From the NCBI GenBank assembly GCA_035084275.1, contig CM068775.1, forward strand, positions 682,001 to 746,000: a DNA stretch of 64,000 nucleotides, read 5' to 3'. The DNA is from Hydrolagus colliei (taxonomy: Eukaryota). Below, piece after piece: positions 8,501 to 22,700 of this stretch (its first letter is position 1; the number at the start of each line of letters is the position of its first letter). The notes under the pieces were generated by a model. The model saw nothing but the letters and a program-made list of their open reading frames with translations, did not search any database and was not told the origin of the DNA. Made by a program: the position numbers and the translations under genes.

Positions 8501-8785
8501 GAGATCACAACCACACAGTTTATTTTACTTGTTTTAATGATCATGATCGACCAGCAACTCAGGGGACCCGCCACTTACTTGCCGCCATCCTGTCAAAATA
8601 TAAATGCCAGCTCACACTTCACATCCCGATAAAAGTGAATTCAATATCTCTGCCACCACACTCTGGAAGCCTATCCAGCGATGCCAATCATATAGAAATC
8701 TATAAGATTCTTAAGAAGATTGACACAGTAAGCAGTGTGAGAATGTTTCTCTTGGTTGGAGAATCTACAAACTAGGGAGTGATAG

Positions 8786-9387
8786 TGTCGTGGAATAACT
8801 CACAAAGAGATCAGGTTATTCATGTAAAGCACAAACAGTCATTTAATATATACTAACGGCCGAAAGGAGAAATATCCTCACAGGTCAGATACCCGAGTTG
8901 GTACTTCTAAAGAACTAACAGAAATACAACGGTTTATATCTTATTCGTTTGCACACCGCATGACAGTAGTATAAGCTCCGTTAACCAATTACAGCAATCC
9001 ACCTAATCAATAAAAGTGAATGTGGGAAGAGAGTTGAACTCTATTTACACTAGCCATGGGGTGCAAAAAGGGCAGCATCTATTAAAACAAAACTAGACAA
9101 CCACAAGTTGCTAATTGATAGATTACCATTTTCAAAGAAAGAAGTAAATCGTCTTTAATGATCAGGAAGCAATTGATCACCTAAAGAATAACAAGCAGGG
9201 AATGTCTAATTTACTCAAACACAAGCCTTTCTCCCTTCTTGGTCTGGACTATGTCATACAACTGACGTTTGCTGATACCCCTATTGACCTCTGGAATTTC
9301 TAAGGGAGACTAAGAAACAGCTAACAATGTCCAGGGGAAGCTAAGAAACAGCTAACATGGTTGCCAATGTTTAACATGGTTTCCACA
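8786..9387 (-). repeat. ERV 3' LTR
   Basis: Direct repeat of 16390-16991. Minus strand TGTGGAAACC..CCACGACA; TATAAA at 8933-8938; ATTAAA at 8842-8847; 17-bp U3 direct repeat ctaagaaacagctaaca at 9310-9326 and 9341-9357. Confidence 0.96.
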
Positions 9388-9389
9388 AT

Positions 9390-9427: not shown

Positions 9428-10712
9428 CTAATCAAAATTAATAGCAGCTAGCCGAGCAGCTTCTTGTTCAATAGAATCCTTATCTAGATCGAATTCTCCA
9501 GGGTAGGATAACGATAGTAATGGAAGGAGGGCAGGGACATTTAAGTTTGGAGGTCTAAACATTTGAGCACACAAACAGCGGAAGCACATGACACAAGCAT
9601 ATATCAAAACAAAAGCACAAATAATTATTATGAAACCTTGGACAAAAGTACCGCCAAGACCTCCAAACCAAGTGTACCAAGAGGTAGACCCAGTAGAGTG
9701 TAAACTGTTAACAGCAGATCGAATATGGGTGATTAGATAAGTAATGTTCTCTGAGGAATCAGGGATATAGGTGCAACATTCAGTACCTATTAAGGCACAC
9801 GTGCCGCCTTGTTTGGCCAATAAAAAATCAAGGGCCATTCTATTTTGGAGGGTGGTCGTCCGAATGGCCATTAATTCAGCACTAAGCTGTTCTAGGGCAG
9901 TCGCAGTGTCATTTGCAATTTGTTCCAATAGGGAAGATACTTTATTTACTTCTATTTGAGATTGAATTGTTCCAGAGAATGGGACAAAGGCAGAAGCAAT
10001 CATTTCCCATGTAGAAATAGATCTACGGAACTTCTGGGAAGGCAAGGCAGGTAAACTTTGCAAATGACGAACTTGTGGGATCACATAAGCCAAATAACAG
10101 GACCCAACCCAAGGGGCAACCAGGGATAGGCTTTTTGCCCACAAACAAAATAAGTGCCATTATAAGACACTGCTCGAAGGTCATCTTTCCAAATCATTAA
10201 ACTAGGGCCCGACCATCGAAGTCCACTTGTTATATTAGGCAACCCAGTAAGATTAAATATACCGAAGATAGGCCAGATATCAGTGTTATCCTTACTCACT
10301 GTGATCGTACCTATGGAAATATGGTATGAACAAAGACTGTTACCCATAAAAAGACCATGTAGTGAAGGTCGTACAAAGCAGACATGACCTAGAGTTACTT
10401 CGGTACCTTTATTTCGAGGGATAATCAAAAATGGAGGTAAATGACTTCTATTGAATAGGGGTTACATTTTTTAAATTGATAGAGCATCCATTCAACCGTT
10501 TCTGACAAATCAAAAGGGACTGATTGTACAGGAATGCCTCCTTTTGAATGGAGAGGGATATGTGAGCATACCCAACAAGCTGATTGTCCTGTGCGGTTTG
10601 CAAAAACGTATGACATGTACAAATATGTATTAGCATGAACAGAAATACGGGGTTTTACACTTAATAACTGAGTAGAACATACTAAAAGGCAATAATATAG
10701 ATTCAACATCAT
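9428..10712 (-). pseudogene. env: ERV env (gamma-type SU/TM), two frameshifts (~10460, ~10110)
   Basis: Signal peptide MMLNLYYCLLVCS; CWVC (CxxC); furin site KFRR; ISD LQNRMALDFLLAKQGGTC; CX6CC (CALIGTECC); TM helix FVQGFIIIICAFVLIYAC. ATG directly follows the pol TGA. Confidence 0.93.
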
Positions 10713-13700
10713 TCAACCAGTAAAAGGTGCTGGCTTGACGTGAGTGGCGTGAATCCAAGTATTTTGTCCTTTACACTTGACAGCAGTATGGGTTGTCAAC
10801 AGGACAAGGTATGGTCCTTCCCACCGGGGCTCCAGGCAATTCTTCCTTCGAAAGACCTTTATGTAGACGTGATCACCAGGAGTGTAATCGTGACAGGCGT
10901 CTTCAGTCGGTTTCTGCTGGGCAGCCACTACCCTGCGTGTGGAAAGTTCTAAAAGACTTCGTTAGAGCTACACAATAAGATAACAAAGCTTCATCCATAG
11001 CATGGAGAACCATTTGTCTAGTTGTTAATGGGGCGCTTATCGGTAGTCGTAAAGGACGACCCATAACTATCTCATGAGGAGATAGACCAGTTAATCTGTT
11101 AGGATTTGAACGCATGAGCATCAATGCAACCGGTAAGGCTTCTGGCCATTTCATACCCGTTTCAGCGCATAATTTAGCAATCTTATTCTTCAAAATCCCA
11201 TTATGTCGCTCCACTGCACCTGTAGACTGTGGATGATAGGGACAAGAAAAATGCTGTGTACACTGTAAGGCTCTAAGCAATTCTTTAATGATAGTGCCGG
11301 TGAAGTGAGGTCCATTGTCACTGGATAAACGCTCTGGCTCCAAACCTAGGAACAAAATCTTTAAGTAGAATCTTAGCCACTGTTATTGCATCATGTTTCG
11401 TGGTAGGGTCGGCTTCTACCCATCGAGAGAAAACATCCAAAATGACTGAAACATAAGTAAAACCCATACATGTAGGCATGTGAATAAAATCCATTTGTAA
11501 ATGGATAAAAGGTCCCCAAGGCTGCGGCTGTGATGCCGGCTGCACAGTCGGAGTCTTACCCGCATTATATTTATTACATATAACACACTGCGTACTAATT
11601 TTCACAGCCAGTTTAGCAAATCCAGGCGCATACCAAGATTGCTGAATAATGCTTAACATTCCCCCTTTGCCCGCGTGTGTATACACATGACACATATGGG
11701 CACAGCCAGGGCAACAGGCTCTTTGGGGCAACCACGCGGCCGTCGTGGGATACCCAGAGACCTGACTCGAGTTGAGAGCATCCTGCAGCCTTCCAGAGAG
11801 CAACCTCTTCAGAGGGTGACTCAGCCTGGGAATGTAGGAGAGATGACAAGGGAGAAAGATTAGACGTAGGTTTAGCAACACATAATTTTACCATAACCCC
11901 TGCATTACCATGCACAGCTGCTTTTGCGGCACGGTCAGCACGGATATTACCAAGAGAGATATCATCTATACCGGTGGTATGGGCGGCACATTTAATAATT
12001 GAAATAGATGAAGGTAACTGAAGAGCTTTTAAAAGATTATAAATCAATTGTCCATGTTTAACCGTAGTCCCAGAAGAGGTAAGGAAACCACGGGATTGCC
12101 AAATAATAGCAAAATCGTGAGCTGTTCCAAAGGCATAACGAGAGTCAGTATAAATGTTAACAGACTGGCCATGGGCTACAATACATGCTCGGGTTAAAGC
12201 AAATAATTCAGCAGCCTGGGCAGAACATGTTGAAGGCAGTTGGCCTGATTCCAGAGTTGCGGTGGGAGAACAAATCGAATAACCGACTTTGGCCGGTTTC
12301 GGAACGCGAGCAGGATCCATCAGTAAAGAGCTCTAAATCAACGTTTTGTTGAGCATAGTCCCGTAAATCTGGACGAGGCAGTGAGACCGTCTGGGTTATA
12401 AGTTCACAATCGTGTGGTTCACCGTCGTCTTCAGTGGGTAAAAGATCAGCAGGATTGAGATTGGTACAGCGAAGAATAGTAAGAGAAGGTTCAGAAAGAA
12501 GAATAGCTTCGTACTTAGTAGTTCGAGCAGCCGTAAGATGTTGAGTCACAGAACGAGTTAATAAACAGACAACAGAGTGAGGCACATGAAGAGACAAAGG
12601 GTGACCGAGAACCAAGGGTTGACAGGAAACTACAGCATGATAAACAGCCGCAACAGCCTTTAAACACCCAGGGAGCGCCTGTGCTACTGGATCAAGACGA
12701 ACGCTAAAATAAGAGATTGGTCTGTGGCGGTCACCATGTAACTGAGTCAAAACGGATTGAGAGAAACCCCGCTTTTCATTAGCAAAAAGATGAAATGGTT
12801 TCTCATAATTAGGTAACCCTAAAGCTGGTGCACTTGTAAGAGCAATTTTGAGGGATGAGAACGCTAAGTTCGCGTTTTCAGACCAGGTTACTTCATCTGA
12901 GGCGGAAGGCAGTGCCAAATCTTGGAGAGGGCGAGTAAGTTCAGCATAGGAAGGAATCCACTGCCGACAATAGCCAGTCATTCCAAGAAAATGCACAAGC
13001 TGTCTTTTATTCATCGGTCGAGGCAATGATGTAATGGACAGAACACGCTTTTCAGATAGCGAACGAGTGTGCTCACTTAAAACATGTCCAAGATACTGAA
13101 CACTAGGCTGACATAATTGAACTTTAGATTTCGAAACTTTATGTCCTTTACGGGCCAGTGCTTGGAGGAGAAGGATGGTGTCTGATTCAGAAGAAGCCTG
13201 TGAGGGTGATGCAAGAAGCAAATCATCAACATACTGAATCAGCACCGAACCTCCAGGAAATACAATATCCTGTAAATCTTGCTGAAGAATGCGAGAGAAA
13301 ATTGTAGGGCTTTCAGTGTATCCCTGTGGCAACCTTGTCCACGTATATTGTTTACCCTGATATGTAAAAGCAAACAAATATTGGGAGTCAGGATGTAGGG
13401 GAACAGAAAAGAAAGCGCCGCAAAGATCGATGACAGAATAATATTTAGTACAGGGAGGAATACAACTTAATATAGTCGCAGGGTGAGGAACAACAGGAAA
13501 AGCTGGTACCACTGCTGCATTTACCGCACGTAAATCTTGCACGAACCGCCATGTATTTCTTCCCGGTTTCTTGATGGGTAAAATAGGAGTATTACATGGA
13601 CTTACGGTTGGGATGATCACACCTTGTTGCAAAAGGTCCTGAATAACTGATTGGATTCCCAATGAAGCTTGCGGGCTTAACGGATATTGCTGTCGTCGGG

Positions 13701-14793
13701 GAAGTTGCTTAGTGACATCCACCTGGACCACGAATGGGGCTGCGGAGAGAACTTTTCCTACCTCATTCGGTCTGATGGCCCACAAACATGTAGGTACTTG
13801 GTCGAATATAATCCTGGTTACATCGTCGGAGGCCAATTGGTGTCGTTCAAAAATGCCAGTCATAGTTGTAAAAGCTAACGTAAGACAAAATTCATTATTT
13901 GGAAAAACAAAAACCTGACCTAAACAGGTAGGGATAGTTTGCAAAGGCTGTTGCTGTTGAAGTCGGAAAACCATAGACCCTAAGTCTTTTGGCACATACC
14001 CATCATTTACATAGAGAGTACAGTGAGAAACATTAGGGGTGGTTGCTTTGTTTCCAGCAACTGCTGCTGGCGAAAGATCCACATATAAAGCAATCCCTTC
14101 AAGTCCATAGTATATCGTATTTGTGGACATACAAAATGACTGTCCCAATTCACCAGTGTGCTGTTGTGCATAATCAGTGTCGTTTCCTTCTTTATCAAAA
14201 TAAGCCGTACAATGGAGATGAGAATGCCATTTATAAGGTTGAAAAGAAGGCAATAGTAAATAAGGCATTAATGCTGGTAAGTGTATTAAAGTTTGTACTA
14301 TATGTAAAAGCTCCGAAGATAACATTGGACTAACAATCTTCCACCACCAAACAATTGGACCTGACAAATCTTGAGCTTCTTGAAGTAAAGCACAAACATA
14401 GCCATATTGTTGTTCAGGAACTTGCAAACTCACACCATCATCAGTACAAACTAAAGTGCATCCAAGTTTACACAGTAAATCTCGTCCGAGTAAATTACAA
14501 GGAACACTTTCTGCGAGTAAAAATTGATGTTCCCCAGTCCACCCATGGATGCTGTACAACATATTTTCAGAAAAAGGGATAGAAATAGGCTGTCCAGTAA
14601 GACCCACTACATTAATTGTATTACCCGTTGCTTTAATACCAGGTAAAGTGGAAGGTTTTAGGGTAGAATGTGTCGCTCCTGTATCAATAAGGAACGGAAG
14701 GGAGAGACCATTAACCATCACAGAACAAAAAGGCTCATTAGAAAAATTGTCATCATCTCTCTGTGGTAATATACCGTCCGGGTTGTGGCACAG
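10713..14793 (-). pseudogene. pol: ERV pro-pol (PR, 2H-like insert, RT, RNase H, IN); open through RT, then four frameshifts (~12290, ~11700, ~11340, ~10930)
   Basis: PR FLIDTGA/NLLGRDLL; RT LPQGYTESP, QYVDDLLL; RNase H FTDGS, SAQAAEL, IYTDSRY; IN HHCC, LQMDF, SDNGPHF, VERHNG; C-terminal WEGPYLVLLTT..WIHATHVK. Confidence 0.95.
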
Positions 14794-15800
14794 TCATTGA
14801 CAATTATTCTTAGGAGGCGAATTGGGGAATGGGGCATTCATAGTAAAAGATGCCCAATTTCCCTGAGGGGTCGCATCAGATGGAGGTGGGGGTTGCATTT
14901 GATATCCTCCACTGTGCCCCTGCTGTCCTCCAACAGTACTTGGGGGGCATTCTTTAGCCCAATGTCCAGGTTGTTGGCATATATAACATAAACCAGGTTT
15001 AGAATTATTATTTCCCCAATTGTTTCCCCAGCCACGACCACGACCTCGTCCACGTCCCCGGCCGCGTCCCCTATCCTGACCCTGATAATTGTTGTAAGGG
15101 TTAGGGTTTGGATGGCCAAAAGGAGCATACTGGATCAGGACGCGTTCGGGCTTATCTTTGAATTTTTGCTGAATTTGACGTTGACAATGCTGCAGAACGT
15201 TAACAGCTTCATTCATAGACTTAGTCTCATATCCTATACAAGCAGGACAAAACATTTTCCTAATACCAGGTTGCAACCCGTTCACAATAGCACTAATCAA
15301 AGCAGGTAATCCAGCTTCTAGATTAATTCCCGAATACTTTTCAAACACATTCCGAAGACGCTCAACATAATCACCAACATCCTCATCTGATTTTTGTACA
15401 GTACAATGGATTTTACCCCAATTGACATTTTTAGGAAATTGCCCACGCAGCGCTTCGCTAATTCTAACCCACAGTTGTTTCATGTGCTCTTCATTTGAAT
15501 TATCCTGATCTAATGTCCAATCACAATTATTTTTAACCTTTTTCCATCTATGATTACCTAAACAAGCATCCAACATTGCTTATTTTTTCTAATCGCTACA
15601 CGTTTCCTTAGGACGTCTCCTAAGGCTGTGATACGATCTAAATTCCATGAACCATCTCTTGGGAAACTATTTCTCTCACACCGTGACCATTTTTCCCATT
15701 TCTTCACATACTGTATACCAGCAGAACCATAATGTACATACACATATGCACATGGAGTCCTTTTATTGGGAACCAAATCTTTACTATTACTTTTACCCAT
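14794..15800 (-). pseudogene. gag: ERV gag (MA, partial CA, NC), frameshift and probable deletion near 15570
   Basis: MGKSNSK myristoylation-type start; MHR-like QKSDEDVGDYVERL; zinc knuckle CYICQQPGHWAKEC; RG repeats; ends with TGA in frame with pol. Confidence 0.9.
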
Positions 15801-16363: not shown

Positions 16364-16381
16364 ATCTCGGTGGAACCTCCA
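16364..16381 (-). promoter_or_regulatory. Primer-binding site, tRNA-Gln
   Basis: Minus strand TGGAGGTTCCACCGAGAT is complementary to the 3' 18 nt (ATCTCGGTGGAACCTCCA) of vertebrate tRNA-Gln as recalled. Confidence 0.9.
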
Positions 16382-16389
16382 AAAAGTAC

Positions 16390-16991
16390 TGTCGTGGAAT
16401 AACTCACAAAGAGATCAGGTTATTCATGTAAAGCACAAACAGTCATTTAATATATACTAACGGCCGAAAGGAGAAATACCCTCACAGGTCAGATACCCGA
16501 GTTGGTACTTCTAAAGAACTAACAGAAATACAACGGTTTATATCTTATTCGTTTGCACACCGCATGACAGTAGTATAAGCTCCGTTAACCAATTACAGCA
16601 ACCCACCTAATCAATAAAAGTGAATGTGGGAAGAGAGTTGAACTCTATTTACACTAGCCATGGGGTGCAATAAGGGCAGCATCTATTAAAACAAAACTAG
16701 ACAACCACAAGTTGCTAATTGATAGATTACCATTTTCAAAGAAAGAAGTAAATCGTCTTTAATGATCAGGAAGCAATTGATCATCTAAAGAATAACAAGC
16801 AGGGAATGTCTAATTTACTCAAACACAAGCCTTTCTCCCTTCTTGGTCTGGACTATGTCATACAACTGACATTTGCTGATACCCCTATTGACCTCTGGAA
16901 TTTCTAAGGGAGACTAAGAAACAGCTAACAATGTCCAGGGGAAGCTAAGAAACAGCTAACATGGTTGCCAATGTTTAACATGGTTTCCACA
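16390..16991 (-). repeat. ERV 5' LTR
   Basis: 602 bp; 5 substitutions relative to the 3' LTR and no indels by eye; TATAAA at 16537-16542. Confidence 0.96.
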
Positions 16992-17489
16992 ATAGTCTCA
17001 AAATTCTTTTCAAACAGAGTTGAGGAAACATTTCTTCACTCACATTTTTTGTGCAGTTACACCCCCACCAAGGTCCACGACCACATCACTCCCACTCTCC
17101 CTCGGCTTCATTGGATCCCCATCTGCCTGAGGATCAAATTCAAGATCCTCGTCCTCACTTTCAAGGCCATTCGTGGTCTTAGAATCATAGAATCTTATGG
17201 CACAAAAGGAGGCCATTTGGCCATCGAGTCTGTGGTGGGTCTTTAAAAAGAGCAATTTAATCCCACTCCCCAGCTCTCTTACCATAATCTCGCAAACTCG
17301 TCTTCCCCAAATAAACGTCTATCTTTCTTTTAAAACTGGTTATCAAATTGGCCTTCACCACCTCTTCAAGGAATACATTCCAGATTGGAACAACGTACTG
17401 AGGGGAAAAAATTCTCCTCATCTCCCCTCTGCTTCTTTTTGAAACTATTTTAAATCTGTGACCAAGAGTCAATGATACACCCACCAGTG

Positions 17490-17770
17490 CTAACCAATGC
17501 AAGACTACAGTCATTGCAGAGTATCCAGTCCCATCCAACATCACTGAGCTCCAGAGATTCATGGGAATGGTCAACCAACTTGGGAAGTTTGTCCCTGGGT
17601 TGGCAGAGATCAACGAGCCATTACGCCAGCTGCTACAGAAAGAGACAGCTTGGTCTTGGGGTAACACACAGCAGAGTTCATTTCAAATCGTGAAAGATTT
17701 GCTAATTTCATCTGCAGTTCTCGCTCAGTACGACCCGAAACGTCCAACCTTCATTGCCACTGAGGCCAGT
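17490..17770 (+). mobile_element. Ty3/Gypsy pol fragment (RT connection and RNase H start)
   Basis: FMGMVNQLGKFVPGLAEINEPLRQLLQKETAWSWGNTQQSSFQIVKDLLISSAVLAQYDPKRPTFIATEAS. Confidence 0.8.
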
Positions 17771-18099
17771 GGGGGGGCGTTGGGGGTAAGGGAGGCCAGT
17801 GGGGGTGGGGGGGGGAGGGGAGGCCAGTGGGGGGGGGGGGGGAGGGGAGGGGGAGGGGAGGCCAGTGGGGGGGGGGGGGGAGGGGAGGGGTAAGGGAGGC
17901 CAGTGGGGGTGGGGGGGGGGAGGGGAGGCCAGTGGGGGGGGTGGAATCAAACAACAACACCAATCAGCAGATGGACAGGAGGTTGAGTGTTTGCTGACGG
18001 TGAGGTTGACAGTGTTGAAGGCGGCAGGGAGGCCAAACAGGAGAAGTGGGCAGAGAGAGCAGCCATTCCCTGTGTTTGCCTGTGGCTGTCTCTCTGTCT

Positions 18100-21538: not shown

Positions 21539-21975
21539 GTAAGTCCCTGTTTGGTTGGTGGGGGGAGGGTTAGTTCCTTTAAACAGGACTTTTCCTGGTT
21601 AATTTTGCCAGGGAGGCAACTGATGTCAGAACTTTTGTGTGTCTGTGTTGATCTTTATTATCCTTCTCTACAGCCTCCCTCCCTTCCTCTCCAATCCTTT
21701 GTCACCTCTCCCTTCTCCTTAAACTCTCTCTAACCCTGTTGTCAATAGCTGATATCTGTTGCCACCACTCTTGACTCTATTACACTTGCCAACGCTGCTC
21801 TACTTAGCCCCACTACAGTGACAACAGGCTGACCATATCTCACTGATTTTGTGACACTCGTATTCTTTTCCATCTCCCAAAATAACGGCTCAGAACGTGG
21901 GATTGCCACTGAATGTGGGAAGTTGTGAGTATATTGATTGGCGCTTTCTCATCCTTTAAACGTTTTCACTTACAG

Positions 21976-22329
21976 GTATAATGGTTCAATCGCCAATCCT
22001 GGTTCAGTCTCCGGAATTTTGTCCAGTCCGAACGAGTCAGATGGTGATTCTACTGTGTAGAGTTGAGAATGGTAAAGTGTCTGACGTGGACTTGGAGTGG
22101 CACATAGGCAATGAAGGTCAAGTCCAATGGGTGTTGCTACAACATTACAGAATGGAAGAAAATTTGATTAACATAATTGATGAATTTTCACAGTGTTTTA
22201 GGGACACCAAAATAAATCTCTTCAGGCTGATACTTAACAAAATTAACACTGGAGACTCTGGCGTCTATTTGTGTTATGATGCAGAACAAATAGCAATGGA
22301 ATCGGGAGTGAGGGCATTGTTGCAGGTAA
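21976..22329 (+). CDS. Ig V-set exon 1 with degenerate J-like end
   Basis: Acceptor ttttcacttacag|; LVQSP..LLC..EW..DSGVYLC..ESGVRALLQV. The donor is ambiguous (after 22325 phase 0, or after 22329 phase 1). Confidence 0.8.
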
Positions 22330-22459
22330 GTGAACGACAGACAGGACCTCAAGCAGTGGCTCTGTGCTGGGAATCCAGGGCATTGAGCCGAGCACCAAGA
22401 GAAGCAGTGAGAAACAGAGTGAGACAGAACCAACGAGAGACAAATCCAGGGAGAGAAGA

Positions 22460-22700
22460 TCAGAGATAGAATCAGATAGAGAAAACCAGAGAGAGTGAGA
22501 GAAAACCAGACAGAGAGAGATAGAGAGAGAAAACCAGACAGAGAGAGATAGAGAGAGAAAACCAGACAGACAGAAAAGAGAAAACCAGACAGAGAGAGAG
22601 AGAAACAGAAAACCAGACAGAAAGAGAGTCAGACATACAGAGAGAAACCAGACAGAGGGAGAGAAAAACCAGACCCAGAGTGAGAGAGAAAGCCAGATGG
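22460..22700. repeat. GAGAGAAAACCAGACA-type minisatellite
   Basis: About 8 imperfect units. Confidence 0.85.

Follow-up and report, generated by a model that had tools for sequence, protein, structure and literature searches.

[quoted passage not shown] Four further ERV families of this genome, recovered by stepwise searches, have the domain at the same place in Pol (hereafter B, C, D and E, the family of the window provirus being A), and in two of them, C and D, it is under purifying selection. We consider with moderate confidence that this predicted enzyme domain carries out CNPase-type hydrolysis of 2′,3′-cyclic phosphate.

That fish retroviruses carry 2H domains was already known: WDSV is among those described as having one (PMC9503650, citing Mazumder 2002), and CNPase open reading frames (ORFs) occur in ray-finned fish epsilon-like ERVs (PMC4977317, citing Basta 2009). 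A preliminary description of this DNA had pointed to such a precedent, and this literature bears it out; teleost ERV homologs were found here as well. What is added is the presence of five families in one genome, with relatives in skates and teleosts, and a sharper prediction, namely CNPase-type chemistry and not destruction of 2-5A. In the searchable full-text literature, which leaves subscription papers outside, we found no functional test of a retroviral 2H domain, and the accessible text of a paper on elephant shark ERVs (PMC4422223) yielded no passage on such a domain. What a 2H domain does in the Pol of fish retroviruses is an old question, for which the domain offers a small, assayable enzyme; it may also shed light on the role of CNPase outside myelin.

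A Pol insert in a young provirus

The window, a 64,000-nucleotide stretch of contig CM068775.1, contains a young class-I provirus on its minus strand, with gag, pol and env each broken by frameshifts (Table 1). Its class I (gamma/epsilon-like) character is seen in the LTRs, the primer binding site, the one-knuckle gag, the in-frame stop before pro-pol and the gamma-type env, and in the PDB its RT matches p80 RT/RNase H chains best (E = 4e-77). One minus-strand ORF of 861 residues (12208–14793) is open across PR (RVP, residues 19–114), the insert and RT (RVT_1, residues 407–571). The match to tRNA-Gln starts several bases off the apparent LTR end and does not abut it (region 16364–16386 of the window); the LTR ends are approximate. 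Just outside the 5′ LTR lie fragments (17257–17893) that we take to resemble a Ty3/Gypsy RT–RNase H and a LINE 3′ end, and farther on an ORF (21960–22469) that presumably resembles an Ig V-type exon.

Table 1. Features of the provirus in the window (positions count from the first base of the window)
Feature	Position	Strand	Basis or remark
5′ LTR	16387..16993	-	ends approximate by a few bases; 6/607 mismatches with the other LTR
3′ LTR	8783..9389	-	ends approximate
Primer binding site	16364..16381	-	match to tRNA-Gln(CUG)
gag, one zinc knuckle, frameshift-broken	14797..15800	-	ORF and Pfam scan
In-frame UGA at gag/pro-pol junction, likely readthrough	14794..14796	-	context UGA-CUG
Retroviral protease (PR)	14452..14739	-	Pfam RVP, E 3e-11
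CNPase-like 2H phosphoesterase domain in Pol (predicted)	13830..14356	-	motifs, conservation, profile homology
First H-C-T motif, HCTAYF (in HLHCTAYF)	14206..14214	-	Phe where CNPase has Phe235
Second H-C-T motif, HCTLYV (in VSHCTLYV)	14017..14025	-	conserved Gly 15 residues on
RT and connection, frame breaks before RNase H	12208..13785	-	Pfam RVT_1, E 2.5e-27
RNase H and integrase, three frames (broken)	10903..12332	-	ORFs, Pfam
env (part of SU, plus TM), broken	9428..10461	-	Pfam TLV_coat, E 4.6e-13

The preliminary description had counted about 170 extra residues between PR and RT and had located two H-C-T motifs in them, and both observations hold. In the RT clade closest to this provirus, five loci (L086–L089 and L112) have their PR and RT matches about 55–62 codons apart, as against 233 here, and because the gap in this sister clade is short, the roughly 170 residues represent a genuine insert within the stated limits. 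The motifs lie exactly where they had been placed, at domain residues 50 and 113 and thus 63 codons apart in the open Pol frame. Taken alone, such a pair goes only modestly beyond chance, as 462 of 20,000 shuffles gave two HxT/S–hydrophobic motifs 55–95 residues apart; it is conservation, and not the motif pair, that carries the case. Conservation in related ERV copies, on which the preliminary description had made its reading depend, is indeed found, with both histidines kept across families. Within family A, motif 2 is intact in all 18 distinct copies; 16 of these extend over motif 1, which is intact in 13, the exceptions being one HGT, one HCA and one out-of-frame copy.

Relatives and homology to CNPase

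Searched alone, the domain of the window gave no Pfam, NCBIfam or PDB match, and Pfam shows nothing significant between PR and RT. Word-indexed protein searches with the domain and locus scans (two viral, one metagenome) found no relatives, and single-sequence PDB searches and a three-family profile against the PDB gave nothing useful. The Hydrolagus genome itself holds at least 18 copies of family A, with unbroken matches at 91–95% identity; the cores of the five families are 18–46% identical to one another, with H50, T52 and H113 invariant. A search of 1.84 billion representatives with a profile of families A–C retrieved 146 proteins. Of these, 102 retain the two motifs, with a spacing of 63 in 51, and 65 have PR before the domain, RT after it, or both (23 PR–2H–RT, 24 2H–RT and 18 PR–2H); another 79, mostly short fragments, have neither neighbour, and 2 are irregular. 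The named clusters (seven of ten looked up) comprise one from skates, which is the best of them, and six from teleosts. Two proteins have other layouts. P0121, a metagenomic protein of 587 residues, has a P-loop (AAA_33) followed by the 2H domain, a kinase-plus-phosphodiesterase order like that of full-length CNPase or RNA-healing enzymes and a possible link to the donor lineage; in P0013, from a catfish, a coiled-coil region precedes the domain, and neither PR nor RT is matched.

For comparison with solved structures we used an alignment of 58 rows, 5 from this genome and 53 of the 146 homologs, the latter picked as short proteins and 51 of them having both motifs. Every one of the 58 rows, which were chosen largely for the motif pair, has the two histidines, and the residue two after the first histidine is Thr in 97 of 100 sequences. 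Against the PDB, the 58-row profile matched CNPase at E = 2.1e-7; 23 of its 24 matches at E ≤ 10 were CNPase or G-RICH, aligned in register over both motifs. A five-family profile built from this genome only likewise placed G-RICH and CNPase first (20 of 22 matches, best E 0.0067), and host CNPase exons scored 26.3 and 11.4 bits with the profile as against a maximum of 5.4 in 1,000 shuffled controls. ESM Atlas neighbours of two family members were tRNA-ligase CPD clusters (0.95; recognition under the 2300 mark). The earlier assignment to the 2H phosphoesterases is accordingly strengthened by two conserved HxT/S–hydrophobic motifs together with a significant profile match to a solved member, CNPase.

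Other branches of the superfamily, to which mouse hepatitis virus (MHV) ns2, the rotavirus VP3 C-terminal domain (VP3-CTD), AKAP7 and phage Acb1 belong, were barely reached. None of the 24 PDB matches at E ≤ 10 was a 2′,5′-phosphodiesterase (AKAP7, ns2 or VP3), and Acb1, the sole match outside CNPase and G-RICH, scored E = 0.13 over one motif, with a Pfam E of 0.14 in 1 of 10 rows. Pfam scores for LigT and 2_5_RNA_ligase2 in families B and C were weak (E 0.008–0.1). The CNPase family PF05881 matched 3 of 60 scanned homologs below its cut-off (best E 2.7e-4), and the window domain not at all.

Like vertebrate CNPase and G-RICH (PDB 2xmi, 1woj and 2i3e; PF05881), the window domain has two HxT motifs in register, an aromatic residue at the place of Phe235 and a loop running to a conserved Gly. 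Phe235, Arg307 and Val321 are determinants of CNPase, to which the β5–α7 loop and helix α7 are unique (PMC4643303). The Phe235 place holds Phe in the window and an aromatic residue (Tyr or Phe) in 86 of 100 sequences, the Gly at 15 residues after the second histidine is kept in 87 of 100, and the β5–α7 loop aligns to CNPase without gaps up to that Gly. Unlike CNPase and G-RICH, the domain has 16 fewer residues between the motifs (63 as against 79), lacks an N-terminal P-loop domain and is embedded in a viral polyprotein; Arg307 is replaced (Val in the window; Ala or Val commonest overall), as is Val321 (Lys in the window, Lys or Arg overall). Because Arg307 and Val321 are not kept and the spacing is shorter, the substrate may differ from that of CNPase. 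We do not file the domain in the CNPase family proper, outside which these two replacements and the missing PF05881 gathering score would place it. AlphaFold returned two low-confidence models (pLDDT 38.9 and 33.6), and a Foldseek search with the second, too poor for a meaningful search, found no match; as neither model is usable, the 2H fold rests on sequence homology.

WDSV and the teleost epsilon-like ERVs resemble the window provirus as class-I fish retroviruses with a CNPase-like 2H domain and an in-frame gag/pol stop; the host here, however, is probably cartilaginous. WDSV was compared by description only, and the accessible passages of the reviews are silent on where in its genome the domain lies. 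The UGA at the gag/pol junction of the window provirus is shared with SSSV, ZFERV and RMEV, for which it is on record (PMC13517186).

Selection and evolutionary history

Shared variants in the domain give a pN/pS of 0.12 in family C (13 copies, p = 2e-18; RT 0.03) and of 0.08 in family D (10 copies, p = 4e-5), which shows purifying selection in both. In family A, shared variants among 17 copies number 12 non-synonymous and 3 synonymous (pN/pS 1.2; p = 0.19 against RT), and pN/pS among singletons is 0.46 (p = 0.003). The values for family B (0.56 and 0.68) are not significant, and in family E the domain and RT both look neutral. Among 7 open copies of family A pairwise dN/dS reached 2.97; given the few copies, a dS of only 0.0075 and a 17-copy count that does not differ significantly from that of RT, we set aside positive selection as its explanation.

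In an RT tree of 30 rows, none dropped, a clade without the domain is sister to family A (93/94). The tree is unrooted and contains no named reference viruses, and its D+E, B+C and A-plus-no-domain clades meet at an open fork. The domain tree is too long-branched for more than a test of congruence between D+E and A, B and C. One gain and at least one loss is the simplest reading: the ancestor of families A–E probably had the domain, and at least one lineage later lost it. This count leaves out 7 loci in which no PR is recognisable as well as L106, which belongs to family C and has a deletion. Lost in this way, the domain would be helpful, not essential. Deletions have removed PR and/or the 2H domain from individual ERV copies (L125, L113 and L106), and in L125 RT starts directly after the gag stop.

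Predicted chemistry, its rivals and a second UGA in family D

The domain would likely be made within Gag-Pro-Pol through readthrough of the UGA and likely be packaged with Pol, because a place in Pol behind a leaky stop entails packaging and synthesis at a low level, as is established for gammaretroviruses. The viral protease would free it from PR and perhaps from RT. In 2H chemistry one histidine activates water and the other protonates the leaving group; both His-x-Thr motifs presumably act as in CNPase, so that 2′,3′-cyclic phosphates would become 2′-phosphate/3′-OH ends. Most speculatively, the domain could heal cyclic-phosphate ends cut by metal-independent RNases on the packaged genome, the primer tRNA or host tRNA, with the outcome that nuclease damage would harm reverse transcription less. 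Clearing of 2′,3′-cyclic nucleotides is an alternative, also speculative use. A 2′-phosphate/3′-OH end may be unusable by RT, which counts against the healing role. Readthrough in epsilonretroviruses lacks verification (PMC13517186, section 4.1.2). Behind three stops that were examined, no stable RNA structure was seen (z = −1.0, −1.0 and 0.15).

The preliminary description had offered several substrates, and RNA-end processing is the option that fits better; the subfamily points away from its lead idea, an attack on OAS–RNase L, the nearest solved relatives being 2′,3′-cyclic phosphodiesterases. An enzyme acting as coronavirus ns2 or rotavirus VP3-CTD does, a 2′,5′-phosphodiesterase that would block RNase L by destroying 2-5A, seems to us quite unlikely. 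The superfamily is the same, the host has OAS-like genes (at least five in tandem on C28, G000:C28:1805710–1843942, L126–L128, and a match on C1), the OASa–RNase L pair of the chimaera C. milii is active in yeast (PMC10400998), and the weak LigT and 2_5_RNA_ligase2 scores point the same way; against this stand the lack of any 2′,5′-phosphodiesterase among the 24 PDB matches and a KEN-domain search of the genome, admittedly insensitive, that found two IRE1 loci only and no RNase L. Moreover, OAS–RNase L was lost in the ray-finned fish ancestor (PMC10400998), yet teleosts supply six of the seven homolog clusters that have names, and because ERVs of fish without the pathway carry the domain, the idea is weak as a general explanation. 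In the Hydrolagus host, with its OAS cluster, 2-5A destruction is possible.

Degradation of cyclic dinucleotides (2′3′-cGAMP) made during reverse transcription, Acb1-like and damping cGAS–STING, is doubtful to the same degree. Fish have cGAS–STING, which detects retroviral DNA, and host conflict could lie behind the surplus of shared non-synonymous changes in family A, but that surplus is not significant, and the single-motif Acb1 match is not significant either, whereas homology is clearly to CNPase. It is also rather unlikely that the domain processes ADP-ribose 1″,2″-cyclic phosphate, or binds RNA as an RT-linked module or spacer in which catalysis matters little. The compound cADPr is listed among 2H substrates (PMC9503650), fish ERVs also capture macro domains (PMC4977317), Lys or Arg stands in place of CNPase Val321, and the sister lineage manages without the domain; nevertheless, a Pfam scan of the window provirus saw no macro domain, and the invariant histidines and near-constant Thr favour catalysis. 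That the domain is a decaying passenger without current function in family A is very unlikely: shared-variant pN/pS is near or above 1 there, but the frame is open, nearly all copies retain the two motifs and singletons show constraint, albeit on small counts.

CNPase-type hydrolysis, the reading we prefer, gains a further aspect from family D (L132–L151), in which a second TGA, again in frame, separates the 2H domain from RT in all 20 copies (for example at L115:4351, a locus outside the window). Its context is TGA-CTA in 15 copies, TGA-CGA in 2 and TGA-CTG in 2, and one is cut by a deletion; the gag stop of the family is TGA-CTA in 13 of the 16 copies that cover it. UGA-CUA is a type II readthrough context, and the accessible text of the same 2026 review of viral readthrough yielded no double readthrough or second stop (PMC13517186). 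Three family D copies about 9% diverged also have the second TGA, and sister family E has no stop at that place. RT behind the second stop has a pN/pS of 0.09–0.15 in one analysis and of 0.11–0.18 in another, and of about 0.1 even against the copies 9% diverged. Since RT is selected behind a fixed stop, the second UGA is likely read through as well; the keeping of one codon over about 9% divergence is not in itself unlikely. Less likely alternatives would be splicing of the pol message, or a defect that was inherited and is complemented.

If the second stop is read through, it would be a new retroviral way to set enzyme ratios, and more PR–2H than RT would be made, as suits an enzyme working apart from RT. 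A broader proposal, which we offer tentatively as possible and less than probable, is that the CNPase-derived enzyme of class-I retroviruses in fish and sharks serves them as a dose-controlled counter-defence of their own and not as an RT appendage, that family D makes three tiers of product (Gag > Gag-PR-2H > Gag-PR-2H-RT-IN), and that the target is an RNase L-independent signal, a cyclic phosphate or cyclic nucleotide, within the innate immunity of fish. One family D copy (L100:2400–3201) adjoins a (TTAGGG)n-like repeat array.
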